A DNA stretch of 64,000 nucleotides. It comes from Erythrobacter sp. Its GTDB lineage: Bacteria > Pseudomonadota > Alphaproteobacteria > Sphingomonadales > Sphingomonadaceae. The notes under the pieces are model-generated. The model searched no databases. It worked only from the letters and a program-made list of their open reading frames with translations, and was not told where the DNA came from. The stretch's first letter is position 1; the number at the start of each line of letters is the position of its first letter. The translations under genes and the position numbers were made by a program. The stretch is taken from the NCBI RefSeq assembly GCF_030066995.1, contig NZ_JASJAP010000001.1, positions 539,230 through 603,229 of the forward strand, read 5' to 3'. This document shows positions 6,001 through 64,000 of this stretch, piece after piece.

Positions 6001-6074
6001 CAATGGGTACTCAAACGGCAAAGGCCCCGCGCGTTCCCGCACGGGGCTGTGAATCGGCGGACATCGCGTGCCGG

Positions 6075-24396: not shown

Positions 24397-26409
24397 GTGG
24401 CCGAAATGCTGGAGGCATCACTTACAGCCATGACGTATGACGCCGCACGCCTCGCACCGATGGCCAACGCCATTCGCGCGCTCTCCATGGATGCTGTGCA
24501 GGCGGCGAATTCGGGTCATCCGGGCATGCCCATGGGGATGGCGGATGTGGCCGCGGCGTTGTTCGCGAACCACCTGAAATTCGATCCCTCGCGCCCCGAT
24601 TGGGCGGACCGCGACCGATTTGTCCTTTCCGCAGGGCACGGCTCGATGCTGATCTATTCGCTGCTCCATCTGACCGGGTACCAGCGTCCCACCATGGAAG
24701 ACATTCGCAACTTCCGACAGCTCGGCAGTCCGTGCGCCGGTCATCCGGAGAACTTCCTTCTCGAAGGGGTTGAATGCACCACCGGTCCTTTGGGACAAGG
24801 CCTTGCGATGGCGGTTGGCATGGCGATGGCAGAGCGGCACCTGAACGCGGTGTTCGGCGATGATCTGGTCGATCACCGCACGTGGGTGGTCGCCGGCGAT
24901 GGCTGCCTGATGGAGGGCATCAATCACGAAGCGATCGGACTTGCCGGACACTTGCATCTGGGCGGTCTCAACGTGCTGTGGGACGATAACCGCATCACCA
25001 TTGACGGCTCGACCGATCTATCGACCAGCGAGGACATCAAGGCCCGCTACGAAGCGACCGGCTGGCATGTGTGCGAATGCGCCGGGCACGACTTTGACGA
25101 CATTGAGCGGGCGCTCGAAGAAGCGAAAAACACCGCAAGGCCATCGCTGATTGCGTGTCGAACGGTGATCGGGAAGGGCGCACCGACCAAGCAGGGCACG
25201 AGCGCGACCCACGGCGCTCCCCTTGGTCCGGATGAAATCGTCGGTGCGCGCGAAGCTTTGGGTTGGCACGCCGACCCATTCGAAATCCCTGCGGCCATTC
25301 TGTCTGACTGGCGCGATATTGCCGCGCGCGGTCAGGAAGCCTCGGGAGCCTGGGCCGCCCGTCTCGACGCCTCGCCGCACCGGGCCGAGTTTCAGCGTCG
25401 CATGGCGGGCGACTTGCCGCAAACCGACGCGCTGAACGAACATATCGCTGAGCTCATCCAGAACCCGCAAAATGTCGCTTCGCGCAAAGCGAGCGAGATT
25501 GCGCTCGCCGCGATCAATCCGGCCATTCCCGAGACAATCGGCGGCAGCGCGGACCTCACCGGTTCGAACAACACCAAGGCAGGGGAAATCGGCGCGTTCA
25601 CGGCCGACGATTACGCCGGGCGCTATGTCTATTACGGCATCCGCGAGTTCGGCATGTCGGCGGCGATGAATGGTCTGGCTCTGCACGGGGGTGTTATCCC
25701 TTATGGCGGCACGTTCCTCGTCTTCACCGACTACGCGCGTGGAGCGATCCGGCTGTCGGCCCTCCAGGAAACGCGTGTAATCTACGTGATGACGCACGAT
25801 TCCATCGGGCTTGGCGAGGATGGCCCGACGCACCAGCCGATTGAGCATCTGGCGAGCTTGCGCGCGATGCCAAACATTCTTGTTATGCGCCCCGGCGACG
25901 CGGTCGAGACCGCCGAGTGCTGGCAGATCGCACTTGAGCAAAAAGACCGCCCGACCATTCTTGCCCTGTCGCGCCAGAATCTGCCGCAATACCGGTTGGA
26001 AGCGGCGCCGGGGAATCTGAGCGCGCGCGGCGGATACCGCGTCAAGTCTGCAGACGCGGCGCGCAAAGTCGCGATCCTCGCAACAGGTTCGGAAGTCGGC
26101 CTCGCGCTTGAGAGCGCCAAGGCCCTCGAGGACCAGGGCATCGGGACCGACGTCGTGTCGATGGTCTGCACCGAACTCTTTGACGAGCAAGATGAGGCCT
26201 ACCGGGCCGACATCCTGGCCGATAATGCGTTGTTGGTCAGCCTCGAGGCGGGAAGCACCTTTGGCTGGCAACGCTACACCGGGCCAAATGGTCTAAACAT
26301 CGGTATTGACCGCTTTGGTGCATCAGCGCCGGGCAAGGATCTCTTTTCCCATTTCGGCTTCACGCCTGAGGCCATCGTCTCACAAATTCAGAACAAATTG
26401 AACGCGTAA
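24397..26409 (+). CDS. tkt: transketolase
   Basis: Motifs NSGHPGMPMGMAD and GDGCLMEGI, with TPP-binding and pyrimidine-binding domains. An alternative start is M at 24430. Confidence 0.9.
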   Translation: MAEMLEASLTAMTYDAARLAPMANAIRALSMDAVQAANSGHPGMPMGMADVAAALFANHLKFDPSRPDWADRDRFVLSAGHGSMLIYSLLHLTGYQRPTMEDIRNFRQLGSPCAGHPENFLLEGVECTTGPLGQGLAMAVGMAMAERHLNAVFGDDLVDHRTWVVAGDGCLMEGINHEAIGLAGHLHLGGLNVLWDDNRITIDGSTDLSTSEDIKARYEATGWHVCECAGHDFDDIERALEEAKNTARPSLIACRTVIGKGAPTKQGTSATHGAPLGPDEIVGAREALGWHADPFEIPAAILSDWRDIAARGQEASGAWAARLDASPHRAEFQRRMAGDLPQTDALNEHIAELIQNPQNVASRKASEIALAAINPAIPETIGGSADLTGSNNTKAGEIGAFTADDYAGRYVYYGIREFGMSAAMNGLALHGGVIPYGGTFLVFTDYARGAIRLSALQETRVIYVMTHDSIGLGEDGPTHQPIEHLASLRAMPNILVMRPGDAVETAECWQIALEQKDRPTILALSRQNLPQYRLEAAPGNLSARGGYRVKSADAARKVAILATGSEVGLALESAKALEDQGIGTDVVSMVCTELFDEQDEAYRADILADNALLVSLEAGSTFGWQRYTGPNGLNIGIDRFGASAPGKDLFSHFGFTPEAIVSQIQNKLNA

Positions 26410-43640: not shown

Positions 43641-45240
43641 CTAAGCGGCGGCGAACTGATTCATGGTGTTGTCCTTGCCGCCCGCCTTGAGCGCGGCTTC
43701 ACCGGCGAAGTACTCTTTGTGATCATCGCCGATATCGCTGCCGGCCATGTTCTGGTGCTTCACGCAGGCGATGCCTTGGCGGATTTCCTCGCGCTGTACG
43801 TTGAGCACGTAGCCGAGCATGGCTTCCTCACCGAAGTAGCGCTTGGCGAGGTTGTCGGTGCTGAGCGCCGCGGTGTGATAGGTGGGCAAGGTAATAAGGT
43901 GATGGAAGATTCCGGCGCGCGCGCTCGCGTCCCTCTGGAAAGTGCGGATCTTCTCGTCCGCTTCGGCCGCAAGCTCGGTGTCGTCATAGTCCACGCTCAT
44001 GAGCTTGGTGCGGTCATAAACTGAGACGTCCTTTCCGGCCTCATCCCAGGCATCATAGACTTGTTGGCGGAAGTTAAGCGTCCAGTTGAAGCTGGGTGAA
44101 TTGTTGTAGACGAGTTTGGCGTTCGGGATCGTCTCGCGCACCTTGTCGACCATTTCAGCTATCTGTTCGACATGCGGCTTCTCGGTTTCGATCCATAGCA
44201 GGTCGGCGCCGTTCTGGAGCGAAGTTACGCAGTCGAGTACCACGCGATCCATACCCGTTCCCGGACGGAACTGGTAAAGGTTAGATGGCAGACGCTTGGG
44301 TTCAAGCAGCTTGCCATCGCGGCTGATGTATACCTGACCATTCTTGATGTTGGCCGGATCGACCTCTTCGGCGTCGATAAAGCTGTTGTACTGATCACCC
44401 AGATCCCCCGGCTCGGTGGAATAGGCGATCTGTTTGGTGAGTCCCGCGCCAAGCGAGTCGGTGCGCGCGACAATCACGCCGTCGTCCACGCCAAGCTCAA
44501 GGAACGCGTGACGGCAGGCGCGAATCTTTTGAATGAAATCTTCGTGCGGAACGGTCACCTTGCCGTCCTGGTGACCACACTGCTTCTCGTCTGAGACCTG
44601 ATTTTCGATCTGCAGAGCGCATGCGCCCGCTTCAATCATCTTCTTGGCGAGCAGATAGGTGGCTTCCGCGTTGCCGAACCCGGCGTCAATATCGGCGATA
44701 ATTGGGACAACGTGGGTTTCATAATTGTCGATCTGATTGGTAAGGTCTTGCGCCTTCACTTCGTCGCCCGCATCCCGCGCCGCGTCGAGATCGCGGAACA
44801 TCAGGCCCAATTCGCGGGCGTCGGCTTGCTTCAAGAACGTGTAGAGTTCTTCGATCAGAGCAGGAACGCTGGTCTTTTCATGCATTGACTGGTCGGGAAG
44901 GGGGCCGAATTCGCTGCGAAGAGCGGCGACCATCCAGCCGGAAAGGTAGAGGTAGCGCTTCTTGGTCGAACCGAAGTGCTTCTTGATGCTGATCATCTTT
45001 TGTTGGCCGATGAAACCGTGCCAGCATCCCAATGACTGCGTGTAGGCGGCGGGATCAGCGTCGTAAGCGTCCATATCCGCGCGCATGACTTTCGCGGTGT
45101 ACTTGGCGATATCGAGACCGGTCTTGAAACGGTTCTGCAGAACCATACGCGCCGCGCCTTCGGCATCTATGGCGGACCAGCCGGCGCCGTTGGCCTCGAC
45201 AAGGCTGCGCATCTGGTTGATTGTGTCTGTGTATGTCATG
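43641..45240 (-). CDS. aceA: isocitrate lyase (long, about 530-aa form)
   Basis: Contains the KKCGHQDGK catalytic motif (seen as EKQCGHQDGKV). The start is taken at MTYTDTINQ. Confidence 0.9.
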
Positions 45241-45378
45241 CTTGAGTTCTCCTGAGCTTTTGATCGGGGTGTGTTCCCGAGGGGGAGGGGATGCTTGACC
45301 CATGCGATATTGCAGTGCGTCATAACAGGAAAATATCCATACAATCGTGTCTCTATCAGCGATTCTGGGCTAGTGACT

Positions 45379-46919: not shown

Positions 46920-48305
46920 ATGATCCGCCTGTTCAAGCACTATATCCCGCACGCCGTGCTGTTGCTCGGCCTGCTCGATTTGGCGCTGTTGGTGGTGGCC
47001 AGCGAACTCGCCTGGCAACTGCGCGCGGCGCAAATCGGTATGGATCCCGGCCCGCTCTCTGAACGCTGGATACCGCTAATCGGCTCAGCGCTGGTGGTGT
47101 GGCTTGCGATGATATCGGTTGGCGTTTACGGCCCGCTGGCCTTGCGCTCCTTGCGTTTTGCTGGGGCCCGCCTGCTGGTGGCGATCAGCCTCGGTATCAT
47201 CGCGCTTGCCTTCGTTGATTTTGTGCTGCCCGGCCAGACCTTCTGGCGCTCCACTCTTCTCTATGCGATGGCTTTCGCCGCGCTTGTTCTTGTGGCTGAT
47301 CGCTTGTTGCTAAACAGCGTGATTGGGTCGTCAGCCTTTCGCCGCCGCGTGCTGGTGCTGGGCGCAGGTGACCGGGCGCAGCGTCTTCGAGCGTTGGGCG
47401 ACCGGCCCGAGAGTGGGTTTGCCATCGTCTCTTACATTGCCATGAGCGAGCCTGAACGCGTGGTTGAAGAAGCTATCGCGCGCGACGCGATCCACGATCT
47501 TGGCCGTTTCGTTGAGAATCTTGGCGTGAGCGAGGTGGTCCTTGCCCTACAGGAGCGGCGCAACGCTCTCCCCCTGAAGGACCTGCTGCGCATCAAGACC
47601 AAGGGCGTGCACGTCAACGATTTCTCCAGCTTCCTCGAGCGCGAGACGGGCCGCGTCGACCTCGACACGGTCAATCCCAGTTGGCTGATCTTTTCGGATG
47701 GCTTTTCGAGCGGGCGGATGCTTTCAAGCGCCATCAAGCGAGTGTTTGACATTGCTGCCAGCGTCGTTCTGCTGACGCTGAGCGCGCCGGTCATTGCGCT
47801 TTTTGCTTTGCTCGTAAAGTTCGACAGCGAAGGTCCGGCGTTCTTCCGCCAGCAACGCGTGGGGTTGTACGGAGAGACATTCCATCTCGTAAAATTGCGC
47901 AGCATGCAGGCCGATGCTGAAAAAGATGGCGCGCAATGGGCCAGCGAAGACGATCCGCGCATCACTCGCATAGGACGTTTCATTCGCACACTTCGCATCG
48001 ACGAATTGCCGCAAACCTGGTGCGTTCTGATGGGACAGATGAGCTTTGTTGGCCCGCGTCCGGAAGTCCCCAAATTCGTTGATGACCTGCAGGAGGAGAT
48101 ACCCTTCTATGGCGAGCGTCACATGGTCAAACCGGGGATTACGGGCTGGGCCCAGATCAACTTTCCCTATGGCGCCTCGATTGAAGACAGCCGCAAGAAG
48201 CTCGAATACGATCTTTACTACGCCAAGAATTACACCCCGTTTCTCGACTTCGTAATCCTGTTGCAGACGGTGCGAGTCATCCTTTGGCCGGAAGGGGCGC
48301 GGTGA
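46920..48305 (+). CDS. exopolysaccharide polyprenyl glycosylphosphotransferase (EPS priming sugar transferase, WbaP/TIGR03025-like)
   Basis: N-terminal TM segments, and a C-terminal bacterial sugar transferase domain (FRQQRVG...LVKLRSM, DELPQ, GPRPE). Confidence 0.85.
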   Translation: MIRLFKHYIPHAVLLLGLLDLALLVVASELAWQLRAAQIGMDPGPLSERWIPLIGSALVVWLAMISVGVYGPLALRSLRFAGARLLVAISLGIIALAFVDFVLPGQTFWRSTLLYAMAFAALVLVADRLLLNSVIGSSAFRRRVLVLGAGDRAQRLRALGDRPESGFAIVSYIAMSEPERVVEEAIARDAIHDLGRFVENLGVSEVVLALQERRNALPLKDLLRIKTKGVHVNDFSSFLERETGRVDLDTVNPSWLIFSDGFSSGRMLSSAIKRVFDIAASVVLLTLSAPVIALFALLVKFDSEGPAFFRQQRVGLYGETFHLVKLRSMQADAEKDGAQWASEDDPRITRIGRFIRTLRIDELPQTWCVLMGQMSFVGPRPEVPKFVDDLQEEIPFYGERHMVKPGITGWAQINFPYGASIEDSRKKLEYDLYYAKNYTPFLDFVILLQTVRVILWPEGAR

Positions 48306-50446
48306 TGAGTGCGTTCTCGATCCTTGATCCCAGTCTTAGCGATTTTGCGACCTTCGTTTCCTACTTTTCGGGTGCTGTTCTGAGCGTTGGCGCAGGGCTC
48401 TGGATCGCGCGCTATGGTGAACGCGATCGGCCTGATCGCGTTGCATCGTTTATCGCCTGCGCATTTACGGCTGTCTGGTGCTCCCTGGCCGCTCTTCAGA
48501 ATTCGAGCGATCCCGCGACCATGCTTGCAGCGACCCTGCGCAACCTTTCTTACATTTTCCTGATTTTCAGAATGTTTGCCGCCGATGGCCGCGACGAGAG
48601 CCTGCGCCCCATTCGCCCGGTTCTGATTACGCTTGCTCTGGTGGAGCTATTCCAGCCGATCTTGCTGTTTGTCGATGGCCGAGTGGGGTTCGTGCCCCAA
48701 CTTGAAGCTTTGACCTTCGAGGTGTCGGTGATCCTTAACATGCTGGTAGCGGTGGGCGCTCTGATGCTGCTTCACAACCTCTATGCGAGCGCCGCTACGC
48801 CCGCTCGGGACGTTCTGCGGTGGGGCACCATCGGGCTAGCGTGCGTCTTTGCCTACGATCTCAACCTGTTCACCATCGCCTATCTCGATGGTGAACTCCC
48901 TTTCTTTCTCATGAGCCTTCGCGGCTTGTTTTGCGGGGTCATGGTCGGGCTTTTCGCCTTGGGCGCGAACGCTGCCAGCTCCGCCCTGCAGTTCAGGCCT
49001 AGCCGCGCGGTCACCTTCCAGACGCTCTCTCTTCTCGTGATCGGCGGCTACCTTGTGCTCATGGTGCTGGTAACCCGCTCGCTTGCGCTTCTGGGTGGTG
49101 ACATCGCTCGCGCGAGCCAAGTGGTCTTCCTGGTAATGGCCGTAGCGCTGGCGGTAATCGGGATGCCATCAAACCGAGTACGCCGATGGCTCCGGGTGAC
49201 CGCGACCAAACATCTCTTCCAGCACCGCTACGATTATCGCGAGGAATGGCTGCGCTTTACCCGCACGGTGGGTCGCGGTTCGAGCGGGAGTGCGAGCTTT
49301 CACGAACGCGCGATCAAGGCGATTGCCGACATCACCGACAGCCCGGGGGGTTTGCTGCTGATTTCGAACGAGGAGGCCCAGCTTGAGCTGACCCAGCGCT
49401 GGAACTGGCCGATGATCGAGGTTCCAGCCGCAAGGGGAGAATACGAGCTTTCGGCCCTTTTGGAGCGGCACAGCCACATTCTGGATCTTGATGAAGTGCG
49501 CGGTGGCATCGATCATCACGGTGAGCTGGACCAAGTCCCGCAATGGCTGATCGACGCGGAGGACGCCTGGGCGCTAGTGCCGCTTATTCATTTTGACAGG
49601 CTGATCGGCTGTATCGTGTTGGCGCGCCCGCGTATCACGCGCCGACTGGATTGGGAGGACTTTGACCTCTTGCGCGTCGTGGGTCAGCAGCTTGCGAGCT
49701 ATCTGGCCGAGCAGGCCGGACAACGCGCGCTAATGGATGCGAGCCGCTTCGACGAGTTCAACCGCCGGATGGCGTTCGTGATGCATGATATCAAGAACCT
49801 CGCCAGCCAACTCTCGCTGCTCGCGGCGAATGCGCAAAAGCACGCCGATAACCCGGAATTTCGTAAGGACATGCTGGTCACTCTTCAAAAGTCTTCGGAG
49901 AAGCTCAACGCGCTGCTCGCCCGCCTTGGGCGCTACGGCTCGGGGCCGGTGCAGACCATCTGTGAGGTGGATCTTTGGGCCATGGCCACGTCCCTTGAAC
50001 AGCGCTTTGCCGCGGCCCATCCTATCGCGGTAACATCAAGCGAGGGCGCGCTTGTTCTGGGGGACAAGGACGGTCTGGAACAGGCTCTCATTCACCTCGT
50101 TCAAAACGCGATTGATGCAAGTGAACCCGACGCGCCCATCCATATAACTGTCTCCAGCGATACGCTGCACGGTCGGCTTGAGATCGTCGACGCTGGATGT
50201 GGAATGTCGCCGGATTTTGTCAGCACAAGTCTATACAAGCCTTTCGTCTCGTCCAAGCAAGGCGGCTTTGGGATCGGCGCGTTCGAAGCGCGCGAGATGA
50301 TCAAGGCGATGGGCGGACGCTTGCAAGTTGAATCGCGCGAAGGCGTGGGAACGCGCTTCACTGTGTTGCTTCCTCTGCCCGAAGCCGCGCGCTTGTTCTC
50401 GCCCAAAGCCGACAGCAAGACCGAATCCTCCGAACAGGTGGCCTGA
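48305..50446 (+). CDS. prsK: PEP-CTERM system histidine kinase PrsK
   Basis: Multi-TM N-terminus, a GAF-like middle domain, an HisKA/HATPase C-terminus (HDIKN, DAGCGM). It is immediately followed by prsR. ATGA junction with the upstream gene. Confidence 0.8.
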   Translation: MSAFSILDPSLSDFATFVSYFSGAVLSVGAGLWIARYGERDRPDRVASFIACAFTAVWCSLAALQNSSDPATMLAATLRNLSYIFLIFRMFAADGRDESLRPIRPVLITLALVELFQPILLFVDGRVGFVPQLEALTFEVSVILNMLVAVGALMLLHNLYASAATPARDVLRWGTIGLACVFAYDLNLFTIAYLDGELPFFLMSLRGLFCGVMVGLFALGANAASSALQFRPSRAVTFQTLSLLVIGGYLVLMVLVTRSLALLGGDIARASQVVFLVMAVALAVIGMPSNRVRRWLRVTATKHLFQHRYDYREEWLRFTRTVGRGSSGSASFHERAIKAIADITDSPGGLLLISNEEAQLELTQRWNWPMIEVPAARGEYELSALLERHSHILDLDEVRGGIDHHGELDQVPQWLIDAEDAWALVPLIHFDRLIGCIVLARPRITRRLDWEDFDLLRVVGQQLASYLAEQAGQRALMDASRFDEFNRRMAFVMHDIKNLASQLSLLAANAQKHADNPEFRKDMLVTLQKSSEKLNALLARLGRYGSGPVQTICEVDLWAMATSLEQRFAAAHPIAVTSSEGALVLGDKDGLEQALIHLVQNAIDASEPDAPIHITVSSDTLHGRLEIVDAGCGMSPDFVSTSLYKPFVSSKQGGFGIGAFEAREMIKAMGGRLQVESREGVGTRFTVLLPLPEAARLFSPKADSKTESSEQVA

Positions 50447-51810
50447 TGACTGAAAAGAAACCCACGCTCCTTATTGTCGAAGATGACGAAGGCCTGCAGG
50501 CTCAGCTTAAATGGGCCTATGATGACTTTGAGGTGGTGATCGCGGGGGACCGCGACAGCGCGCTTGCCCTTCTGCGCAGCGAGACGCCGGCGGTCGTGAC
50601 GCTCGATCTCGGATTGCCGCCTGATCCAGACGGGACGACCGAGGGCTTTGCGGTGCTTGACGCGATCATGGAACTTAAGCCGGACACCAAGGTGATTGTT
50701 GCGAGCGGACATGGCGCGCGCGAAAGCGCGCTGCAGGCAATCGAGCGCGGTGCTTACGATTTCTACCAGAAGCCGCTGGACATTGAAGCGCTTGGCCTGA
50801 TCGTGCGCCGCGCGTTCAACCTCCATCAGATCGAGGCAGAGAACCGTCGCCTTTTAGCCAGCGCCGGTGAGGAAAAGACCGTGCTGGGTCGCCTGATTAC
50901 GGGCGCGCCGGAGATGGTCAAGGTGGCACGTACGATCGAGCGGGTGGCGTCGACCAACGTTTCGGTCATGCTTTTGGGTGCCAGCGGAACGGGTAAGGAA
51001 TTGCTCGCACAAGGGCTCCATGACGCCAGCGACCGCACCGTAGGCCCCTTCGTCGCGATCAACTGCGCCGCGATACCGGAAAACCTCCTTGAAAGCGAAC
51101 TGTTCGGTCACGAGAAGGGCGCGTTCACCGGCGCTGTGAAGACCACCGAGGGCAAGATCGAGAGCGCTAATGGTGGCACACTCTTCCTCGACGAGGTGGG
51201 CGATATTCCCTTGCCTTTGCAAGTCAAGCTGCTGCGCTTTCTTCAGGAGCGCACCATCGAGCGTATCGGGGGGCGTAAGACAATACCGGTCGATACGCGC
51301 ATTGTGTGCGCAACCCACCAGAATCTCGAGGCCATGATTGGCGAAGGCACGTTCCGGGAAGACCTGTTTTACCGCCTGGCCGAAATCGTCGTGCGCATTC
51401 CCAGCCTGGCCGAACGTCACGGCGACGCGATATTGCTCGCAAAGGCGTTTCTCAAGCGGTTTGCAAGCGAGATGAACCCAGCGGTGACTGGGTTTGCCCC
51501 CGACGCTTTGGCGGCAATCGACCGTCACGAATGGCCGGGCAACGTGCGTGAACTTGAAAACCGGGTAAAGCGCGCGGTCATCATGGCCGATGGCAAGCTC
51601 GTGCACGCCGAAGATCTCGACTTCGAGGATGACGAGGAGGATGAGAACGACGTCCTGAATCTCAAAGTGGCGCGCGAGCGCGCTGACCGACGCGTTATTC
51701 GGCACGCATTGGCCCGTAGCGAGGGCAATATCTCGAGCACCGCCAAGATGCTTGGGATTAGCCGCCCGACGCTTTACGACTTGCTCAAACAATACGATCT
51801 GCATGCCTGA
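50446..51810 (+). CDS. prsR: PEP-CTERM-box sigma-54-dependent response regulator PrsR
   Basis: A REC domain, an AAA+ sigma-54 activator core (GASGTGKE, GAFTGA), and a C-terminal Fis-type HTH. Confidence 0.85.
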   Translation: MTEKKPTLLIVEDDEGLQAQLKWAYDDFEVVIAGDRDSALALLRSETPAVVTLDLGLPPDPDGTTEGFAVLDAIMELKPDTKVIVASGHGARESALQAIERGAYDFYQKPLDIEALGLIVRRAFNLHQIEAENRRLLASAGEEKTVLGRLITGAPEMVKVARTIERVASTNVSVMLLGASGTGKELLAQGLHDASDRTVGPFVAINCAAIPENLLESELFGHEKGAFTGAVKTTEGKIESANGGTLFLDEVGDIPLPLQVKLLRFLQERTIERIGGRKTIPVDTRIVCATHQNLEAMIGEGTFREDLFYRLAEIVVRIPSLAERHGDAILLAKAFLKRFASEMNPAVTGFAPDALAAIDRHEWPGNVRELENRVKRAVIMADGKLVHAEDLDFEDDEEDENDVLNLKVARERADRRVIRHALARSEGNISSTAKMLGISRPTLYDLLKQYDLHA

Positions 51811-56380: not shown

Positions 56381-57820
56381 ATGGTAGCAGCACCTTCCGG
56401 CCACGAGAATTGGTCGTCACGCGGCGCGTTCATCTTGGCGGCGGTCGGGTCCGCTGTGGGGCTTGGCAATCTGGTACGTTTTCCGGCTGAAGCGGGGACC
56501 AATGGCGGCGGCGCCTTTGTGCTTTTCTACGTCTTTTGCGTGGTTTTGATCGGCCTCCCGGTGCTCTTGTCAGAAGTGCTGATCGGTCGCCACGGACAGG
56601 CTGCAGCGCCAATCAGCTTTCGCAAGATTGCCGAGGAATCGGGTGGATCCAAAGCGTGGGGCACCGTTGCCTCGCTCGGCGTATTTTCCGCCTTCCTCGT
56701 GCTCAGCTTTTACTGCGTGATTGGCGGCTGGGTGCTCTATTACATTGGCCTGTTCGCGCAAGACATAGTCGCTTCAGGCGCAACGAGCGGTGCCTTTGCG
56801 GACCAGTCCTTCGAGCAGGTCGACAGCTACTTTGGCGGCATGGTGAGCAATGGAGTGGCTACCAGTGTGCTCGATGTAGGCTTTGTCGGGATTACCGTAT
56901 TCTTTGTCGCGCGCGGTGTCTCGGGTGGGATCGAAAAGGTCGCGGTCTATCTTATGCCGGCTTTCTTCTTCTTGCTGCTGGGGATCACCGTTTACGGTAT
57001 GTTTGGCGGGGCCTTGAGCCGGACGGTCGACTATTTGTTCACCTTTGAACCCGACAAACTCTCCGGTGAAGTGATGCTGGCCGCGGTGGGGCAGGCCTTC
57101 TTCTCGCTTTCGCTCGGCGTTGCAGGGATGGTGACCTACGGTGCCTATGTCGGGCGCGATGTGAACCTTGCGAGCACCAGCGGCATGATCGCAGGCGCCG
57201 ACACGGCGGTCGCGCTTATTGCGGGTCTGTGCATCTTTCCGATCGTCTTCGTCGCGGGGCTGGAGCCCAATGGTGGCCTTGGCCTCATGTTCCAGACCCT
57301 GCCACACGCCTTCTCGGACATTCCCTTCGGCACGCTCATTGGCCTGGCCTTCTTCATCATGGTGGGTTTTGCCGCGCTGACGAGTTCGGTTAGCCTGATG
57401 GAAGCGCCCACGTCCTGGGCAATGGAACGGCTGGGCCTACCGCGCGTACAAGCGGCGCTGGGTGTGAGCGTGGCCGCCAGCGTACTGGGCGTGCTTTGCG
57501 CGCTCTCAACTGGCTCGCTTTCCTCTTTTCATCCGCTGGGTTTTATCCCGATGTTTGAGGGGATGGGGGTACTTGATGTGCTCGATACCTTCACGGGTAA
57601 GCTCACCATGCCGATTGGCGCTTTGCTGACAGCTGTCTTCATTGGCTGGGTTGCCTCGCGGCGTTTGCTCGATGAGGAGAACGGGCTTTCGGGCGGCCTG
57701 CACCGTTTCTGGCTGTTCCTTGTGCGCTGGTTCTGCCCGTTGGTGCTCACGCTGATTCTCTTCGGCGGCATATTCCCCGAGACCACGGGCCAGATGCTAG
57801 GTTTCCTGAGCGGGGGCTGA
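56381..57820 (+). CDS. sodium-dependent transporter of the NSS/SNF family
   Basis: GSAVGLGNLVRFP N-terminal motif, and 11-12 TM helices. Confidence 0.85.
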   Translation: MVAAPSGHENWSSRGAFILAAVGSAVGLGNLVRFPAEAGTNGGGAFVLFYVFCVVLIGLPVLLSEVLIGRHGQAAAPISFRKIAEESGGSKAWGTVASLGVFSAFLVLSFYCVIGGWVLYYIGLFAQDIVASGATSGAFADQSFEQVDSYFGGMVSNGVATSVLDVGFVGITVFFVARGVSGGIEKVAVYLMPAFFFLLLGITVYGMFGGALSRTVDYLFTFEPDKLSGEVMLAAVGQAFFSLSLGVAGMVTYGAYVGRDVNLASTSGMIAGADTAVALIAGLCIFPIVFVAGLEPNGGLGLMFQTLPHAFSDIPFGTLIGLAFFIMVGFAALTSSVSLMEAPTSWAMERLGLPRVQAALGVSVAASVLGVLCALSTGSLSSFHPLGFIPMFEGMGVLDVLDTFTGKLTMPIGALLTAVFIGWVASRRLLDEENGLSGGLHRFWLFLVRWFCPLVLTLILFGGIFPETTGQMLGFLSGG

Positions 57821-57884
57821 CGCCAGACATAGGGCACGCGAGCGCGCGAGAAGCGTGTTGCAATCCTTCACCTTTTGTGGAACA

Positions 57885-57899
57885 AATAAGGAACAAAGA
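57885..57899. promoter_or_regulatory. alphaproteobacterial LexA box GAACaaataagGAAC
   Basis: The direct repeat GAAC-N7-GAAC lies 22 nt upstream of the imuA ORF. Confidence 0.55.
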
Positions 57900-57920
57900 G
57901 GCGCGCTTAGAGTCTCTTGA

Positions 57921-58889
57921 GTGTTCCGCATGACCCATTGTGTTGCCTCTTCCTGCGCAAAAGCGCTGCGCGATTTTCCCGTTCCCTCCCGGCCCGAGGG
58001 GGCTGAAGTGGCTCGGCGTCTGTCCGCGCAAGAGATCGCCACAATTTCCAAAGCCCGTGAGACGCGCTGGCGTCCAGGGTTGGAAGATCAACCCTGGCAC
58101 AGCGAGATTTTCGCCAGCGCGCGCGACGCTAGCGGGGCGGGGCTGGCTTTGGCCCTAGCGCGCGACGCTCTGGGGGTCGCCGCTGGGCGTGAGGATCCGG
58201 CCGCTGAGCCTGAGGATCGTCGTCATATTCTGTGGGTGCAGGACGCGCGCGCGATCCGGCTCGGCGGGCGACCTTATCTTCATGGGCTTCCCAAGGATCT
58301 GCGCGAGCGGCTGATTCATGTCGAGGCCAAGACGTCCGAGGACGCGCTGTTCGCTTTGGAGGAAGGGCTGCGCTGCCGCGATCTCGCCTGTGTGATCGGA
58401 GAGATCGTGGGCAATCCGCGCGCGCTCGACTTCATCGCCTCGCGCCGACTGAGCCTCGCGGCCGAAAAGCATGCGGTCGCCTTGTGGCTGGTGAGGCTGG
58501 AGGCGCAAGCGGACCTGTCTTCGGCGCGCATGCGCTGGCGAGCGGAGCCTGCGCCGTCCGCGTGTCCCCGCTGGAACGCTGAAGCGCCCGGCCATCCCAG
58601 CTGGCGCGCTGAGCTGTTTCGCGCGCGTTCCAACGCGCCCGGTGAATGGATTGTAAGCGATGACGAAACCACTCTCACAGCCAGGCGACCGAACCAAGAC
58701 GAACAGCGCGAAACCCAGCGCCTCGGGCCCGCGCTCGCTCGGCAGCGGCGTTTCTGGTACCCCGGCGGCGCGTCCACTCACGCCGTCCACTCCTCGACAA
58801 TCGCTCATATCCCAAAAACCACGCCGGATCCTTGCCATCTGGTGCGCGCGACTATCGGTCGATCGCTGGCGGCTCGCGCACGGATGTGA
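57921..58889 (+). CDS. imuA: ImuA (SulA/RecA-fold inducible mutagenesis protein); 3' end uncertain
   Basis: Core ARRLSAQEIA...ILWVQDA...ALWLVRLEAQADL...WRAELFRARSNAPGEW. The ORF continues as low-complexity sequence to 58889 and overlaps imuB by 230 nt. The real stop may be earlier, or there may be a frameshift. Confidence 0.65.
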   Translation: MFRMTHCVASSCAKALRDFPVPSRPEGAEVARRLSAQEIATISKARETRWRPGLEDQPWHSEIFASARDASGAGLALALARDALGVAAGREDPAAEPEDRRHILWVQDARAIRLGGRPYLHGLPKDLRERLIHVEAKTSEDALFALEEGLRCRDLACVIGEIVGNPRALDFIASRRLSLAAEKHAVALWLVRLEAQADLSSARMRWRAEPAPSACPRWNAEAPGHPSWRAELFRARSNAPGEWIVSDDETTLTARRPNQDEQRETQRLGPALARQRRFWYPGGASTHAVHSSTIAHIPKTTPDPCHLVRATIGRSLAARARM

Positions 58890-60411
58890 GCGTGGGGAAG
58901 GACCGGACGCTGAGCCGGTTGCGCTGATCACTGAAACCGCGCACGGGCCCCGCATCGCCAGCGTCAACGACGCCGCGCGCGAGGCAGGGGTGCAGGTGGA
59001 CACCATGCTGGCGGATGCGCGTACGCTGTGCCCGGCGATCAAGGTGGTCCCGGCGGACCCGGCGGGTGATCTGGCGTTTCTGGAAAAGCTGGCCGTTTGG
59101 GCGCGGCGCTGGGGGCCGTGGAGCGGGCTTGATGCACCCGATGGCGTGATCGTCGATGTGACGGCGGTGGCGCATTTGTTCGGAGGCGAAGCGCAACTTG
59201 TTGCGGATGTCGAGGCCGCCTTTGCTGCGCGTAAGCTGGCTGTGCGCACCGCCATTGCCTCCACCGCTGGTGCCGCCTGGGCGCTTTCGCATTTTGGCCG
59301 CACTGGCGCGATTGTTCATGGGGATGAGCCGCGCGCGATCCTGCGCGCGCTGGCTGATCTTCCCGCAGCGGCGCTGCGGCTTGATGCTGATGTGCTGACC
59401 GTTCTGCGGCGTCTTGGCTTGAAGACGCTGGGGCAACTTGCGGGCGTGAGCCGAGAAGAAGAGGCCACTCACGAGGGTGGAGCGGCCGGGCGCGACGCAC
59501 TCCAGCGCCGATTTCGCAACCGCAAATCCCCCGCAGCCAACCCACTTGTCCGTCTTGACCAATTGCTGGGCCGGATTCCTGAACCCTTGCTGCCAATCGT
59601 CCCGCCAGCTGTGCCGATGGTCCAGCGCCGCCTTATGGAGCCAATCCGCCATCGCCCGCTGCTCGACACGGTTCTGAGCGACCTGGCGCAGGATATGGCG
59701 CGCGTGCTTGAGGGCCAGGGGCAGGGCGCGCGCCGGCTTGAACTGGGGCTATGGCGGGTTGACGGTGAGGTGCTGGTGCGCCGTCTGGAGCTTGCGGCCG
59801 CCACGCGCGAGGCGGCGCACATCACCCGGCTGTTTGCCGCCAAACTGGACGATGTCGAAGCGGGCTTTGGGATCGAGACGGTGCGCCTCACCGCGAGTTG
59901 GGCCGAACCGCTGAGCGCTCAGCAAGGCGATATCGAAGCAGCCGCCGAGCGCCACGGCACGTGCTTGAGCGCGTGTGTTGATCGGCTGAGCGTGCGCCTT
60001 GGCCCAACCGCGGTACGCCGTTCAGTGCCGTATGCCAGCCATATCCCTGAGCGCGCTCAGCGCTGGCAAGAGGCGCTGGAGCCGCGAGGCGCCTCACAAA
60101 CCACTTTCGAATTTCATAAGAGACCTCTGAAAATTCTGGATAACCCGGAAAGGATCGCCGTACTCTATGCCTCGCCCGATGGTTTCCCCCAGCGCTTTCG
60201 CTGGCGCGGCGATGCGCGCGAGGTGGCGCGGGTCGAGGGGCCCGAACGCGTCGCGCCGGAATGGTGGCGCGAGCGTTCCACCGTTCGGTTGCGCGATTAT
60301 TACCGGATCGAGGATACGGATGGGCGGCGCTACTGGATCTATCGCCACGGGGTTACGGGCGATGGGCGTGGGGGGGCTCCCGAATGGTTCTTGCAAGGGC
60401 TGTTTGCCTGA
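58660..60411 (+). CDS. imuB: ImuB (catalytically inactive Y-family polymerase homologue); 5' end uncertain
   Basis: The conserved N-terminus RRILAIWCARLSVDRW begins at about 58822. The first 54 residues are Ser/Pro-rich and probably not translated. Confidence 0.75.
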   Translation: MTKPLSQPGDRTKTNSAKPSASGPRSLGSGVSGTPAARPLTPSTPRQSLISQKPRRILAIWCARLSVDRWRLAHGCERGEGPDAEPVALITETAHGPRIASVNDAAREAGVQVDTMLADARTLCPAIKVVPADPAGDLAFLEKLAVWARRWGPWSGLDAPDGVIVDVTAVAHLFGGEAQLVADVEAAFAARKLAVRTAIASTAGAAWALSHFGRTGAIVHGDEPRAILRALADLPAAALRLDADVLTVLRRLGLKTLGQLAGVSREEEATHEGGAAGRDALQRRFRNRKSPAANPLVRLDQLLGRIPEPLLPIVPPAVPMVQRRLMEPIRHRPLLDTVLSDLAQDMARVLEGQGQGARRLELGLWRVDGEVLVRRLELAAATREAAHITRLFAAKLDDVEAGFGIETVRLTASWAEPLSAQQGDIEAAAERHGTCLSACVDRLSVRLGPTAVRRSVPYASHIPERAQRWQEALEPRGASQTTFEFHKRPLKILDNPERIAVLYASPDGFPQRFRWRGDAREVARVEGPERVAPEWWRERSTVRLRDYYRIEDTDGRRYWIYRHGVTGDGRGGAPEWFLQGLFA

Positions 60412-60544
60412 CGCGCCGCGTCGCAACCCGCCCCCATGCGAGGCGACAAAACCTTACCAGATCGCTGCAGCGAGACCTTATGGTTAAACCGCGTTTACCC
60501 GCGCGCTTAACATTCCTTTACGAATCTCTGGCACCTCGCCCATT

Positions 60545-60868
60545 ATGAACCTTGGATCGATTTCACGCTCGTCAGAACGCCGCCCGCTCCGCCTGCTCGT
60601 CAAGAGCCGGGTGCAATCGCGCGTCGTTTTTGTCGACATGCTCGACATCTCGGAAGGCGGCTGCAAAATTCGCGGAAGCTTGGGCTTCGCGCAAATCGGC
60701 GACCGCGTCACCATGCGGGTCGATGGTGTTAACGCACCGCTTGGGACTGTCGCGTGGATCGAAGACAAGGTGGCCGGCGTCGCCTTCGAAGGCGAAATGC
60801 ACCCGGCCGTGCTCGACTATCTGTGCGAAGTCTCAGGCGATCCCAACCCGCTTCGCAACAAATCCTGA
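60545..60868 (+). CDS. PilZ-domain protein (c-di-GMP receptor)
   Basis: The RxxxR (RRPLR) and DISEGG motifs are 30 aa apart, and a beta-barrel-length C-terminus follows. Confidence 0.6.
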   Translation: MNLGSISRSSERRPLRLLVKSRVQSRVVFVDMLDISEGGCKIRGSLGFAQIGDRVTMRVDGVNAPLGTVAWIEDKVAGVAFEGEMHPAVLDYLCEVSGDPNPLRNKS

Positions 60869-61215
60869 TCGCGTGGCACCCGCCCTCTGTCTTGTTCCTT
60901 AGCCATCGCCAACCTTTGAGCCAGTGGGCAACGCTCCAATAGCGTTCGCGGGACGCTGAAGGAGCGCCGACATCAGATACTGTGTGTGATATGGCCGTGG
61001 TGATGGGGAGTTACTTTTTCACCCCGTTGGCGGCTAAGAGGAGACCACGGCCGAGTACACGATCGGCTACATTCGCGATGCGAAAGGCGATTTGCGAGTG
61101 ATGATCCACAAGTCGACGATCCCTTACAACGCCGATTGATTACCTGTTTTTGCAAGCTCGCGCCGGGTGGGCCCAGTGCGGCTTGCGCGCTTTGCATTGG
61201 ACCGGAGATGAATGA

Positions 61216-61230
61216 GAACATATAAGGAAC
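61216..61230. promoter_or_regulatory. alphaproteobacterial LexA box GAACatataagGAAC
   Basis: The direct repeat GAAC-N7-GAAC lies 25 nt upstream of the radical-SAM gene ATG. A GTTC-N5-GTTC pair follows on the opposite strand. Confidence 0.55.
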
Positions 61231-61254
61231 ACTCTACGTTCCAACGGTTCTCTC

Positions 61255-62493
61255 ATGACTCAGCAAACGCTAAGACAAAAACTCGAAATCCTCGCCGACG
61301 CCGCCAAGTATGACGCGTCTTGTGCATCGTCCGGCACGGCCAGGAAGAACTCGCTTGGCGGGAAAGGGATCGGCTCGACCGAGGGGATGGGCATTTGCCA
61401 CGCTTACGCGCCCGATGGCCGGTGCATTTCGCTTCTGAAGATCCTGCTGACCAATCACTGCATTTTCGATTGCCACTACTGCGTCAATCGCAAGAGCTCG
61501 AATGTGCGCCGGGCGCGCTTCTCCCCGCAAGAGGTCGCGAACCTCACGCTTAGTTTCTACCGGCGCAATTATATCGAGGGGCTGTTCCTCTCCTCAGGCA
61601 TCATCAAGAGCTCGAACCACACGATGGAGCAGCTTGTCGAGGTCGCCCGTATCCTGCGCGAGGAACACGATTTTCGCGGCTACATTCATCTCAAGACCAT
61701 CCCAGAAGCGGACGCCGAGCTGATTCATCAGGCAGGGCTGTACGCGGATCGCGTCTCAATCAACGTCGAACTGCCTACGACGAAAGGCCTCACCCGCCTC
61801 GCGCCCGACAAGGATGAGAGCACGATTGAAGGCGCTATGGGCAAGACCAAGGCGCGCATCATCGAGGCCAAGGACGAGAGAAAACGCTTCAAGCACGCAC
61901 CGCGCTTTGCGCCCGCGGGGCAATCGACGCAGATGATCGTGGGCGCGGATGACGCCAACGATGCAGCGATCGTCGGGCGCGCGAGCGGGCTCTACAAGCG
62001 CTTTGGCCTGCGCCGCGTCTATTACAGCGCTTTCTCGCCGATCCCGGATGCCAGCGCCGTACTGCCCTTGAAGCGCCCGCCGCTGATGCGCGAACACCGC
62101 CTCTACCAGTCCGACTGGCTGATGCGGTTTTACGGCTACGCTCCGCAAGAGGTCGCGCAGGCGACGGAGAAAGACGGTAACCTGCCGCTCGATATCGATC
62201 CCAAGCTTGCCTGGGCGCTGAAATTCCGGGAGCAATTTCCGGTCGATGTGAACCGCGCCTCCAAAGAGCAGCTTTTGCGTGTGCCGGGGCTGGGGACAGT
62301 GGCGGTGCGGCGCATTCTGGCCGCGCGGCGGCACCGAACCTTGCGGTTGGACGATGTCGCGAAGCTGACCCAGTCGATCACCAAGGTCCGGCCCTTCCTG
62401 ATCACACTCGACTGGCGCCCGACCGTGCTGACCGACCGCGCGGATTTGCGCGCACTGTTGGCCCCCAAGCAAGAGCAGCTGGAGCTGTTCTGA
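61255..62493 (+). CDS. putative DNA modification/repair radical SAM protein (TIGR03916-type)
   Basis: CxxxCxxC cluster CIFDCHYC. The C-terminus has a helix-hairpin-helix-like DNA-binding tail (LLRVPGLG). It is paired with the downstream UDG-domain gene. Confidence 0.85.
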   Translation: MTQQTLRQKLEILADAAKYDASCASSGTARKNSLGGKGIGSTEGMGICHAYAPDGRCISLLKILLTNHCIFDCHYCVNRKSSNVRRARFSPQEVANLTLSFYRRNYIEGLFLSSGIIKSSNHTMEQLVEVARILREEHDFRGYIHLKTIPEADAELIHQAGLYADRVSINVELPTTKGLTRLAPDKDESTIEGAMGKTKARIIEAKDERKRFKHAPRFAPAGQSTQMIVGADDANDAAIVGRASGLYKRFGLRRVYYSAFSPIPDASAVLPLKRPPLMREHRLYQSDWLMRFYGYAPQEVAQATEKDGNLPLDIDPKLAWALKFREQFPVDVNRASKEQLLRVPGLGTVAVRRILAARRHRTLRLDDVAKLTQSITKVRPFLITLDWRPTVLTDRADLRALLAPKQEQLELF

Positions 62494-63944
62494 TGACGGC
62501 TATGCAGCACGTCAGCCTTGGCGCTCATTATGTTGTTCACTTGCCTACGCCTGATGATTTCGCCTTCTGGCGCGAACGTGCGCGGCAGCTGATCCAATGT
62601 GATGTGCCGCCGGACCGGGTGAGTTGGGTGGAGCCAGGCGGGACGGGTGATCTGTTCGCGCAGGAAGGTCCAAGCCGGGGCGAGCGGCGCTTGCCGCTGC
62701 CGGAGAAGAGTGCACGGCAGGTGCGCGCGTCCAAGCGTTTCATGAAGCTGGCGCGCAACGCGGCCCTTCATTCCGACCCCGAACGCTTTGGCTTGCTCTA
62801 CCGGGTGCTCTGGCGGCTTCAGTCCAAACCGCGCTGCATGGAGGACAAGGCCGACGCGGATGTGCGCCGCGTCGAAGAGCTCGACAAATCGGTGCGCCGC
62901 GACAGCCACAAGATGCACGCCTTTGTGCGCTTTCGCGAAGTCACCGATGAAACAGGAGCGGAGCATTACGTCGCCTGGTTCGAGCCCGATCACCATATAG
63001 TGCGCGCCAACGCCGGGTTCTTCATGCGTCGTTTTGCCAATATGAACTGGTCGATCCTGACCCCGCGCGGCTGTTTGCATTGGGATGGGACAACGATGCG
63101 CGAAAGCGGGCCTGCGCGCCGCGAGGACGCGCCCGGTGGCGATCCTGTCGAGGCGCTGTGGAAGTCCTATTATTCCTCGATCTTCAATCCCGCGCGGCTG
63201 AAGGTCGGCGCGATGCTGGCGGAAATGCCCAAGAAATACTGGAAGAATATGCCCGAGTCCGAGCTTATTCCCGAACTCATCGCCGGAGCGCAAGCGCGCG
63301 AAGCGGGCATGGTGGCGGCCGGAGCGCGCGAAGATCGGAAACTGCCCAGCAGTGTGGACGCCATCGCGCAAGGAATTGGTGCCTGCCGCGATTGCCCCAT
63401 CGCCGAATGCAGCACGCGGGCGGTTATGGGGGAGGGCGCTTTGGGAGCGCGGCTGATGATCGTGGGCGAACAACCAGGCGATCAAGAGGACGAGCAGGGC
63501 AAACCCTTCGTGGGGCCAGCGGGGCAATTGCTCGACGAATACCTCACAAAGGTCGGGATCGCGCGCTCGCAGGCCTACGTCACCAACGCGGTCAAGCACT
63601 TCAAATTCACCTGGAAAGGCAAGCGCCGTCTCCACCAGTCGCCCACCGCCAAGGAGATCGATGCCTGTCGCTGGTGGCTCGAAGCCGAACGCTCCGTCGT
63701 CAAGCCGCGCGTTGTGCTGGCGCTTGGCGCGAGCGCGGCGCGTGGTTTACTGGGCAAGACCGTCAGCATCGCCCGCGCGCGGGGCACGCCGATGCCGTTG
63801 GAGGATGGATCGGAGCTGTGGGTGACGGCGCATCCCTCTTACCTGCTACGGCTTGATGGTGAGGCGCGTGCAGAGCAGGCGGCGAAGTTTGAAAGTGATC
63901 TGGAGGCGGTGCGAGCGCGGCTGACACAAATCGCCGGCTGCTAG
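62493..63944 (+). CDS. DUF4130 (TIGR03915) fused to uracil-DNA-glycosylase family-4-like domain (TIGR03914)
   Basis: The C-terminal motif GEGALGARLMIVGEQPGDQEDEQGKPFVGPAGQLLD matches UDG family 4 motif A/B. The N-terminal half is the DUF4130 partner domain. Its start overlaps the rSAM stop. Confidence 0.8.
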   Translation: MTAMQHVSLGAHYVVHLPTPDDFAFWRERARQLIQCDVPPDRVSWVEPGGTGDLFAQEGPSRGERRLPLPEKSARQVRASKRFMKLARNAALHSDPERFGLLYRVLWRLQSKPRCMEDKADADVRRVEELDKSVRRDSHKMHAFVRFREVTDETGAEHYVAWFEPDHHIVRANAGFFMRRFANMNWSILTPRGCLHWDGTTMRESGPARREDAPGGDPVEALWKSYYSSIFNPARLKVGAMLAEMPKKYWKNMPESELIPELIAGAQAREAGMVAAGAREDRKLPSSVDAIAQGIGACRDCPIAECSTRAVMGEGALGARLMIVGEQPGDQEDEQGKPFVGPAGQLLDEYLTKVGIARSQAYVTNAVKHFKFTWKGKRRLHQSPTAKEIDACRWWLEAERSVVKPRVVLALGASAARGLLGKTVSIARARGTPMPLEDGSELWVTAHPSYLLRLDGEARAEQAAKFESDLEAVRARLTQIAGC

Positions 63945-64000
63945 GTCCTGAGATGCCCGACGCTCCGCTCACCCCCGACAAGCGCACGCTCGAGATCGAC

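Follow-up and report, generated by a model that had tools for sequence, protein, structure and literature searches.

The imuA-imuB-dnaE2 cassette (imuABC), known from Caulobacter crescentus and Mycobacterium, the operon pairing TIGR03916 with TIGR03915, and the mycobacterial protein UdgX are the closest described counterparts of the locus reported here. In Alphaproteobacteria, the LexA box has been defined experimentally as GTTC-N7-GTTC (PMC9578287, PMC12700426). The TIGR03916/TIGR03915 operon encodes a radical S-adenosylmethionine (radical-SAM) protein and a DUF4130 protein, the latter often fused to a TIGR03914 glycosylase domain; it has been reported as LexA-regulated in Verrucomicrobia (PMC4951493) and in Bacteroidetes (PMC8565304), and a statement in the latter paper that cites da Rocha 2008 extends LexA control to Alphaproteobacteria. 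LexA control of the pair is already published and is not new. Comparative genomics of the SOS response had already linked DUF4130 to SplB-like radical-SAM enzymes and uracil-DNA glycosylases (UDGs) (PMC3765255), and a DUF4130:radical-SAM complex has been predicted with confidence by AlphaFold 3 in a preprint (bioRxiv 10.64898/2026.08.19.745780). Tolerance of UdgX-DNA complexes in E. coli requires RecA, DinB and UmuDC (PMC4787834). Here, we describe a locus at the end of a stretch of 64,000 nucleotides (nt) from Erythrobacter sp. (contig NZ_JASJAP010000001.1), hereafter the window, in which these components are combined. With high probability, the region is an SOS island for mutagenesis and repair, repressed by LexA, in an Erythrobacter-type member of the Alphaproteobacteria (Sphingomonadales). 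Within it, the radical-SAM/UdgX module is self-contained, with a predicted LexA control of its own, and is nested in an imuAB-dnaE2 cassette, an arrangement found likewise in many Erythrobacteraceae and in Novosphingobium.

Organization of the island

Six genes on the same (forward) strand occupy positions 57,880–64,000 of the window (Table 1). Their true order is LexA box–imuA–imuB–pilZ–LexA box–radical-SAM gene–DUF4130-udgX fusion–dnaE2, with the last gene cut by the window end.

Table 1. Features of the island and their positions in the window
Feature	Position	Strand	Description
Putative imuA -35 element, TTGCAA	57858..57863	+	read from the sequence; predicted from the consensus
LexA-type box 1, GAACAAATAAGGAAC	57880..57894	+	putative operator of the imuA-imuB unit
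imuA-like gene	57930..58889	+	319 amino acids (aa); weak NF033429 match and place between LexA box and imuB
imuB	58660..60411	+	583 aa; Y-family polymerase-like domain and ImuB-C domain
Conserved element upstream of pilZ, GCTTAACATTCCTTTACGAATCTCTGGCAC	60505..60535	+	likely pilZ promoter or regulatory site (predicted function)
pilZ	60545..60868	+	107 aa; single-domain PilZ
Frameshifted lipoprotein gene remnant	60976..61136	+	about 50 codons, C-terminal end; outside the system
Predicted radical-SAM gene promoter	61197..61226	+	-35 TTGGAC (61197-61202), 18-nt spacer, -10 TATAAG (61221-61226) inside box 2
LexA-type box 2, GAACATATAAGGAAC	61216..61230	+	putative operator of the radical-SAM-udgX-dnaE2 unit
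Radical-SAM gene	61255..62493	+	412 aa; TIGR03916, helix-hairpin-helix motif
DUF4130 (TIGR03915) and UdgX-class uracil-DNA glycosylase fusion gene	62493..63944	+	483 aa
dnaE2, 5' end	63953..64000	+	first 48 nt, cut by the window end

An earlier note on this DNA, made from the letters and their open reading frames, had described the cassette as lacking dnaE2. We reject that reading, since the absence is an artefact of the window edge. An ATG at 63953, 8 nt past the stop codon of the UDG fusion, opens a reading frame that runs off the window end and continues on Logan contig L001 (SRR23318466), which is identical to the window across 11,508 shared nt and extends 1.3 kb beyond it. On this contig the frame comprises 438 codons; NF004225, a model of error-prone polymerases, recognizes the product with 398.7 bits (E 6e-119), a far better match than that of any DnaE1 model. 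In the closest genome relative, L002, the orthologue is complete (1163 aa) and exceeds the cut-off of 939 with 1370.8 bits. In 55 of 72 relatives, no more than 12 nt separate the UDG match from the dnaE2 match, and the gap behind udgX is mostly 3–12 nt. dnaE2 is closely packed as the third gene of the second unit predicted to be under LexA control. An apparently missing gene near the end of a window needs checking before it is interpreted.

A motif scan returned exactly two GAAC-N7-GAAC matches in the window, both on the forward strand and both fitting the GTTC-N7-GTTC / GAAC-N7-GAAC operator exactly. The earlier note had recognized both sites; its position for the second was right, and that for the first (57885–57899) was 5 nt off. 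As it had proposed, each box stands ahead of a transcription unit, 36 nt before the imuA ATG (57930) and 24 nt before the radical-SAM ATG (61255). The bare motif is common by chance, with 1.66 occurrences expected per 64 kb and at least two found in 53 of 100 shuffled sequences, so the case for the boxes rests on their position and conservation.

To assess this conservation, two collections of relatives were used: 80 species-level Sphingomonadales loci fetched with the radical-SAM protein (radical-SAM-seeded loci, 81 in the counts below), and 80 metagenome loci fetched with a PilZ alignment (PilZ-seeded loci). A box within 90 nt upstream of the radical-SAM gene was detected in 80 of the 81 radical-SAM-seeded genome loci and in 73 of 73 PilZ-seeded metagenome loci (153/154 together). 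Where the 5' end of imuA is included, the box was present upstream of it without exception (26/26 genome and 52/52 metagenome loci, 78/78 together). The radical-SAM gene is also preceded by a box in Phaeobacter, Paracoccus and Azospirillum, which represent three other alphaproteobacterial orders.

The product of imuB is recognized by the Pfam families IMS (40.9 bits), IMS_C (25.6 bits) and DUF6504, the ImuB-C region (30.5 bits), all above their gathering scores. For the imuA-like protein, the match to NF033429 (ImuA) reaches 31.2 bits against a cut-off of 150 and covers the C-terminal half of the model, and seven orthologues score likewise below threshold (21.6–29.5 bits). This protein has no Pfam match, and searches of PDB sequences with the protein and its profile gave nothing meaningful. 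The other assignments made in the earlier note, namely the TIGR03916 radical-SAM protein, its DUF4130-UDG partner and a PilZ gene between imuB and the radical-SAM gene, were borne out by hidden Markov model searches, with scores above the curated cut-offs, and by gene order in relatives (see below).

The ATG at 58660 is the sole in-frame ATG, GTG or TTG upstream of the conserved ImuB N-terminus (RRILAIWCARLSVDRW, from about 58822). With this start, the two genes apparently share 230 nt (58660–58889), read in different frames; the publicly annotated imuB start at 59005 truncates the IMS domain. The C-terminal extension of ImuA can be aligned in about half of the relatives, and elsewhere imuA stops earlier and imuB follows directly.

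The radical-SAM/DUF4130-UdgX pair and its embedding

The radical-SAM protein matches TIGR03916 at 574.9 bits (cut-off 343.5) as well as the Pfam families Radical_SAM and HHH_3, and carries the CX3CX2C cluster motif as CIFDCHYC, coded at about 61451–61474. The start of the fusion gene overlaps the radical-SAM stop codon by 1 nt (62493). Its product scores 228.9 bits with TIGR03915 (cut-off 112.25) and 306.6 bits with TIGR03914 (cut-off 189.95) and contains the Pfam domains DUF4130 and UDG. The UDG domain aligns with the structure of Mycobacterium smegmatis UdgX (6ail) over about 190 residues (E 4.8e-46). The UdgX class is characterized by the motif GEQPG, a KRRIH R-loop with the cross-linking histidine, and HPS(S/A)(L/V)(L/V)R (PMC10359453). 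In the alignment with 6ail, GEQPG of the window's protein falls on motif A, KRRLH on the R-loop with its cross-linking histidine, and HPSYLLR on motif B; the protein departs from the class motifs twice, with Leu for Ile and Tyr for Ser/Ala, both conservative changes. By its motifs, the UDG domain is of the UdgX class, and plasmid-borne orthologues are named 'UdgX family uracil-DNA binding protein' in RefSeq.

The radical-SAM-seeded loci fall into three main layouts. The pair stands alone behind its box in 48 of the 81 loci, from Sphingomonas and others (48 Sphingomonadales species). In about 16 loci, from Novosphingobium, Citromicrobium, Pelagerythrobacter and others, the order is imuA–imuB–box–radical-SAM gene–udgX–dnaE2. 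The same embedded layout with pilZ between imuB and the box was found in 13 loci of Erythrobacter and Porphyrobacter (L001–L012 and L022), which brings the pair inside an imuAB-dnaE2 cassette to about 29 of the 81 Sphingomonadales loci. In L020, L021, L026, L027, L030, L031 and L036, imuB ends 45–92 nt before the radical-SAM module, and there is no PilZ gene. A stand-alone radical-SAM/UdgX pair with its box is also carried on Phaeobacter, Paracoccus and Azospirillum replicons. Natural losses occur in both directions: L109, L118 and L156 have deleted the pair and kept imuAB–pilZ–box–dnaE2, partial deletions are seen in L134 and L149, and L014, L019, L024 and L025 hold the pair with no imuAB or dnaE2 nearby. 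The embedding of the pair in an imuAB-dnaE2 cassette, with dnaE2 as the third gene, appears to be undescribed, as no description was found in the literature searched.

The pair may have come to lie beside imuAB and dnaE2 by neutral accident, the two LexA units sharing only their regulator and UdgX and the radical-SAM protein having no mechanistic link to DnaE2. The predominance of the stand-alone pair with its own box, in Sphingomonadales as well as in Rhodobacterales and Azospirillum, favors this explanation, as do the limitation of the embedded layout to related lineages, the loci that deleted the pair and kept dnaE2 behind the box, and those that retain the pair away from imuAB and dnaE2. 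However, the insertion lies precisely within an operon, at the imuB/dnaE2 junction, and the close packing of dnaE2 3–12 nt behind udgX in most relatives means that DnaE2 expression would now depend on the predicted promoter of the radical-SAM module. The layout also persists across genera in which imuA is only 50–68% identical, and the toxicity of heterologous UdgX is relieved by RecA and translesion polymerases (PMC4787834), which makes a functional link plausible. We consider a purely accidental arrangement possible but the less likely explanation.

The radical-SAM/DUF4130-UdgX pair is widespread and recurs in LexA regulons. Its embedding with dnaE2 as the third gene is a genetic hint that UdgX/radical-SAM processing and DnaE2 synthesis act on the same lesions. 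The natural variants, i.e., cassettes without the pair and pairs without the cassette, make the UdgX-DnaE2 question testable in culturable Erythrobacter, Porphyrobacter and Novosphingobium.

A clade-specific PilZ gene beside imuB

The small protein encoded between imuB and box 2 matches PF07238 (PilZ) at 33.3 bits (cut-off 22.5) and contains both PilZ motifs, RxxxR as RSSER and DxSxxG as DISEGG, with the last arginine 22 residues before the aspartate. No variation was seen at R8, R12, R13, D34, S36, G38 and G39 in sets of 16 and 36 proteins of the family. The AlphaFold 2 model (mean predicted local distance difference test score, pLDDT, 76.3) is a β-barrel of seven strands with a C-terminal helix. 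PilZ domains (4i86, BcsA, VCA0042, PlzA, MotI) rank first among the PDB structures similar to it, although these matches are weak (E 0.015–0.15, template modelling (TM) score about 0.5) and β-barrel proteases are mixed among them; a search of PDB sequences with the PilZ profile gave nothing meaningful. By its motifs, the protein belongs to the cyclic di-GMP (c-di-GMP) receptor type.

Homologue searches returned 335 clusters, and the 120 listed are all about 110 aa long, at least 63% identical and form one tight group. Carriers of the orthologue include Porphyrobacter sp. ULC335, Erythrobacter sanguineus, Erythrobacter sp. HL-111 and Erythrobacter sp. WH131. In PilZ-seeded loci, imuB lies directly upstream of pilZ in 68 of 70 cases and the radical-SAM gene downstream in 51 of 54; among the 81 radical-SAM-seeded loci, orthologous PilZ genes occur only in the 13 listed above. 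The family is confined to one Erythrobacter/Porphyrobacter clade and is positionally fixed beside imuB. Such a clade-specific, imuB-linked PilZ gene appears not to have been described in the literature searched, and no paper linking PilZ with imuB or dnaE2 was found there.

The earlier note had taken the position of pilZ as a sign of second-messenger input into mutagenesis or repair. Its view that such a link would be undescribed agrees with our literature search, and the link itself is weakened by three observations. First, pilZ is preceded by a conserved element with the consensus gCTyAg..TTy.TTTAC, whose TTAC is 26–29 nt away from the start codon in 77 of 82 unique loci and which is not accompanied by a Shine-Dalgarno sequence. 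This element likely represents pilZ's own promoter or a regulatory site; the 3' half of the window's copy departs from the clade consensus, and no further copies were found in the window. Second, in L146, which has no imuAB, pilZ stands behind a strong intrinsic terminator and an unrelated gene for a permease, and the upstream element is kept. Third, in L094 and L097 imuA and imuB are reduced to remnants, the radical-SAM gene and udgX are gone and dnaE2 is broken, yet pilZ is intact; the two copies differ by 8 synonymous and 5 conservative non-synonymous codons, which we read as purifying selection.

Two known site types were considered for the element. A CtrA box (TTAA-N7-TTAAC) is unconvincing, with TTAA-N7-TTAC present in 12 and the relaxed T[TC]A[AG]-N7-TTAC in 61 of the 82 unique loci, and a sigma-54 reading of the TGTGCG...TTGC part was rejected by eye, the invariant GG being absent. 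The metagenome loci L094 (3100–4800) and L097 (5700–6700) come from two related lineages in which the cassette is decaying step by step; the first codons of the radical-SAM gene are fused to the broken dnaE2, and both LexA boxes remain.

An alternative holds that PilZ is a dedicated c-di-GMP-gated accessory that modulates ImuA, ImuB and DnaE2 or the radical-SAM/UdgX pair, so that mutagenesis would follow the second-messenger state. The gene follows imuB on the same strand after a median of 56 nt, which leaves no room for a terminator, and its position is fixed in essentially all family members; every one examined from the tight group of 120 homologues sits at the imuB locus. Moreover, RxxxR and DxSxxG are invariant, PilZ is about 65–85% identical where imuA is about 50–70% identical, and an unrelated PilZ gene is also found in the imuB–radical-SAM gap of L034. 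On the other hand, the family has a single origin in one clade, so that descent explains the synteny, many relatives have the same cassette and lack PilZ, and the L034 case may be a coincidence, as small PilZ genes could well be frequent in genomes of this kind. The conserved upstream element, which suggests an own promoter, and the L146, L094 and L097 loci described above also speak for independence. We therefore regard a dedicated accessory as unlikely, and its more detailed form, a c-di-GMP-gated accessory of SOS mutagenesis expressed from the LexA-controlled imuAB transcript as well as from its own promoter, as quite unlikely. More likely, pilZ is an independent passenger rather than a dedicated regulator, possibly also read through from imuAB, and the protein most likely has its own promoter and a function independent of the mutasome. 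Were PilZ functionally linked to the cassette, second-messenger signalling would be joined to stress-induced mutagenesis, but the evidence makes this link unlikely.

Read-through can be considered because terminators appear to be lacking on either side of pilZ. Between imuB and pilZ and between pilZ and the radical-SAM gene, the window holds only weak 5-bp stems without convincing T-runs, and both spacers are too short for a terminator in most relatives; read-through SOS expression of pilZ is thus possible. The pilZ–radical-SAM spacer measures 386 nt here and about 89 nt in most relatives because of the frameshifted lipoprotein gene remnant. This remnant was detected by tblastn in two frames with proteins from the same gap of L002, L012 and L018 (E 3e-9 to 4e-10), in which a full lipoprotein-like gene occupies the opposite strand between imuB/pilZ and the radical-SAM gene. 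An open reading frame antisense to the remnant (60973–61221, minus strand, 82 aa) has no family match and is considered spurious.

The PilZ gene of L034 (Qipengyuania polymorpha; 8490–8894, minus strand) encodes 134 aa, matches PF07238 at 35.4 bits and adjoins a carbonic anhydrase gene. It was rejected as an inverted orthologue, as it is missed by the PilZ family profile and BLASTP aligns 31 residues at 29% identity.

Promoters predicted within the boxes

Alignment of 216 unique orthologous sites gave the box consensus GAACATAtaa.GAAC. Box 2 has the commonest sequence among the orthologous radical-SAM boxes listed, and box 1 departs from the GAACATA part at position 6 (A for T), as does that of the closest relative, L002. 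Across the 216 sites, the box core doubles as a -10-like hexamer, TATAAG at the radical-SAM gene and CATAAT at imuA, with a -35-like hexamer 17–18 nt upstream. For the radical-SAM gene, the promoter consensus of the PilZ clade (77 unique loci) is TTGCAAgCTTTGCATTtGgCag...GAACATATAAgGAAC, and 67 further loci show a T.G.c hexamer 17 nt upstream of TAtA in the box. For imuA, a TTGCNA-like hexamer lies 17 nt upstream of the CATAAT-like -10 within the box in 72 unique relatives, and the corresponding spacing in the window is 17–19 nt, depending on the choice of -10. LexA bound to the box would cover the predicted -10 element and so block access of RNA polymerase.

The box starts 17 nt before the radical-SAM ATG in most Sphingomonadales and in Phaeobacter, and the imuA consensus places the ATG about 2 nt after the box. 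With the -10 element inside the box, these short distances predict leaderless radical-SAM and imuA mRNAs in most Sphingomonadales; in the window's own clade, a leader of 22–25 nt is predicted.

The second half of box 2 takes part in an inverted repeat with the sequence downstream (61226–61242, GGAAC-ACTCTAC-GTTCC). Most of the PilZ clade has GGAACAC-GAAAG-GTGTTCC at the same place, followed by another GTTCC before the radical-SAM ATG. Possible explanations of this conserved repeat are a hairpin in the leader, a Shine-Dalgarno-like AAGGTG and an additional site for a protein.

In L031, a Novosphingobium metagenome-assembled genome, dnaE2 (13760) lies about 1.1 kb from udgX and has a third box, GAACATAAAAGGAAC, at about 13714; this box is identical to the imuA box of the same genome.

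Although the bare motif is expected by chance in a window of this size and the conservation of its core may partly reflect conservation of a -10-like TATAAG, it is very improbable that the GAAC-N7-GAAC repeats are promoter sequence or sites of another regulator and that the island lies outside SOS control, since the four-base repeats themselves, beyond the TATAA core, are invariant in all 216 sites, the motif is the same as the SOS box established by experiment in Alphaproteobacteria, the units behind both boxes have been assigned to SOS regulons elsewhere in bacteria (PMC4951493, PMC8565304), and a third copy precedes the displaced dnaE2 of L031.

Proposed origin and mechanism

We propose that an ancestral imuA-imuB-dnaE2 cassette was split by a module inserted between imuB and dnaE2, which would have comprised a LexA box with its promoter, the radical-SAM gene and the DUF4130-UdgX gene. 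In a later insertion, the ancestor of one Erythrobacter/Porphyrobacter clade would have gained the small PilZ gene between imuB and the second operator. By analogy with the known alphaproteobacterial SOS system, LexA bound at each box would keep RNA polymerase out; upon DNA damage, RecA-stimulated cleavage of LexA would release both promoters together. ImuA, ImuB and DnaE2 would then be supplied for translesion synthesis along with the radical-SAM/UdgX pair. The glycosylase domain, judged by its homology to UdgX, may excise uracil and link covalently to the abasic site; according to a published prediction, DUF4130 would dock the radical-SAM partner. The fusion may thereby anchor the radical-SAM enzyme at uracil or abasic sites, and the pair probably acts on a lesion that the co-expressed DnaE2 then bypasses.

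Several points weigh against this interpretation. The imuA assignment is weak, as it combines a sub-threshold match with location, and box 1 reads GAACAA instead of GAACAT, a deviation at a highly conserved position. The promoters, leaderless starts and read-through are predictions from consensus sequences. The loss of the pair from L109, L118 and L156 indicates that it is dispensable for the cassette, and the embedding, seen only in lineages related to each other (Erythrobacteraceae, Novosphingobium), may go back to a single past event instead of a functional coupling.

Neighbouring genes in the window

A gene for an SNF-family sodium-dependent transporter (56381–57820, plus strand) lies directly upstream of box 1. 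This neighbour is common to only some relatives (e.g., L002–L004, L012, L082 and L093), so flanking synteny breaks within the clade, whereas imuB-pilZ does not. At the window start, mfd (2506–6042, minus strand), the gene of the transcription-repair coupling factor, and recG (6409–8472, plus strand) are divergent, with no GAAC-N7-GAAC box nearby; mfd, the only very long open reading frame in the window, was considered as a dnaE2 located elsewhere and rejected. A PrsK gene, encoding the histidine kinase of the XrtA/PEP-CTERM system, occupies 48284–50446 (plus strand; TIGR02916, 481 bits) and is followed by a 454-aa open reading frame (50446–51810). Isocitrate lyase (43641–45344, minus strand) and transketolase (24397–26409, plus strand) are also encoded in the window. 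A search for known RNA families between 57500 and 64000 gave none at E values up to 1.

Comparison with known systems

With the imuABC cassettes of C. crescentus and Mycobacterium (PMC10421592, PMC12700426), the island shares a LexA box before imuA, an ImuB with a Y-family-like domain and ImuB-C, and a DnaE2-type polymerase gene downstream on the same strand. In the known cassettes, ImuB has the fold of a Y-family polymerase that is catalytically inactive, and the three genes follow one another in a single operon. Here imuB and dnaE2 stand about 3.5 kb apart, with pilZ, a second box with its promoter, and the genes for the radical-SAM protein and the DUF4130-UdgX fusion in between, and dnaE2 would be fed by the second operator. 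The imuA-like protein further differs in scoring below threshold with the ImuA model, and its gene in the apparent 230-nt overlap with imuB.

As in the described TIGR03916/TIGR03915 pairs, the two proteins score far above their cut-offs, the genes overlap by 1 nt and a LexA box lies directly upstream; the differences are dnaE2 as an added third gene and the seat inside an imuAB-dnaE2 cassette. M. smegmatis UdgX (6AIL; PMC4787834, PMC10359453) has in common with the window's glycosylase domain motif A, the R-loop with its histidine and motif B. It is a protein of about 209 aa, whereas the predicted cross-linker of the window is a 483-aa fusion with an N-terminal DUF4130/TIGR03915 domain, has a radical-SAM partner and a LexA box upstream, and is followed by dnaE2.

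Single-domain PilZ receptors of c-di-GMP include DgrA and DgrB of Caulobacter and PA4608 of Pseudomonas. The window's protein resembles this type in its length of about 110 aa, its PF07238 match, the order of RxxxR and DxSxxG, and the predicted β-barrel with a C-terminal helix. Compared with PilZ domains of known structure (PDB 4i86, 3kyg, 7mie, 5vx6), it has no sequence-level relative in the PDB, and structural similarity is limited to a TM score of about 0.5. Unlike the known single-domain receptors, the PilZ family of the window is restricted to one clade and is encoded beside imuB.

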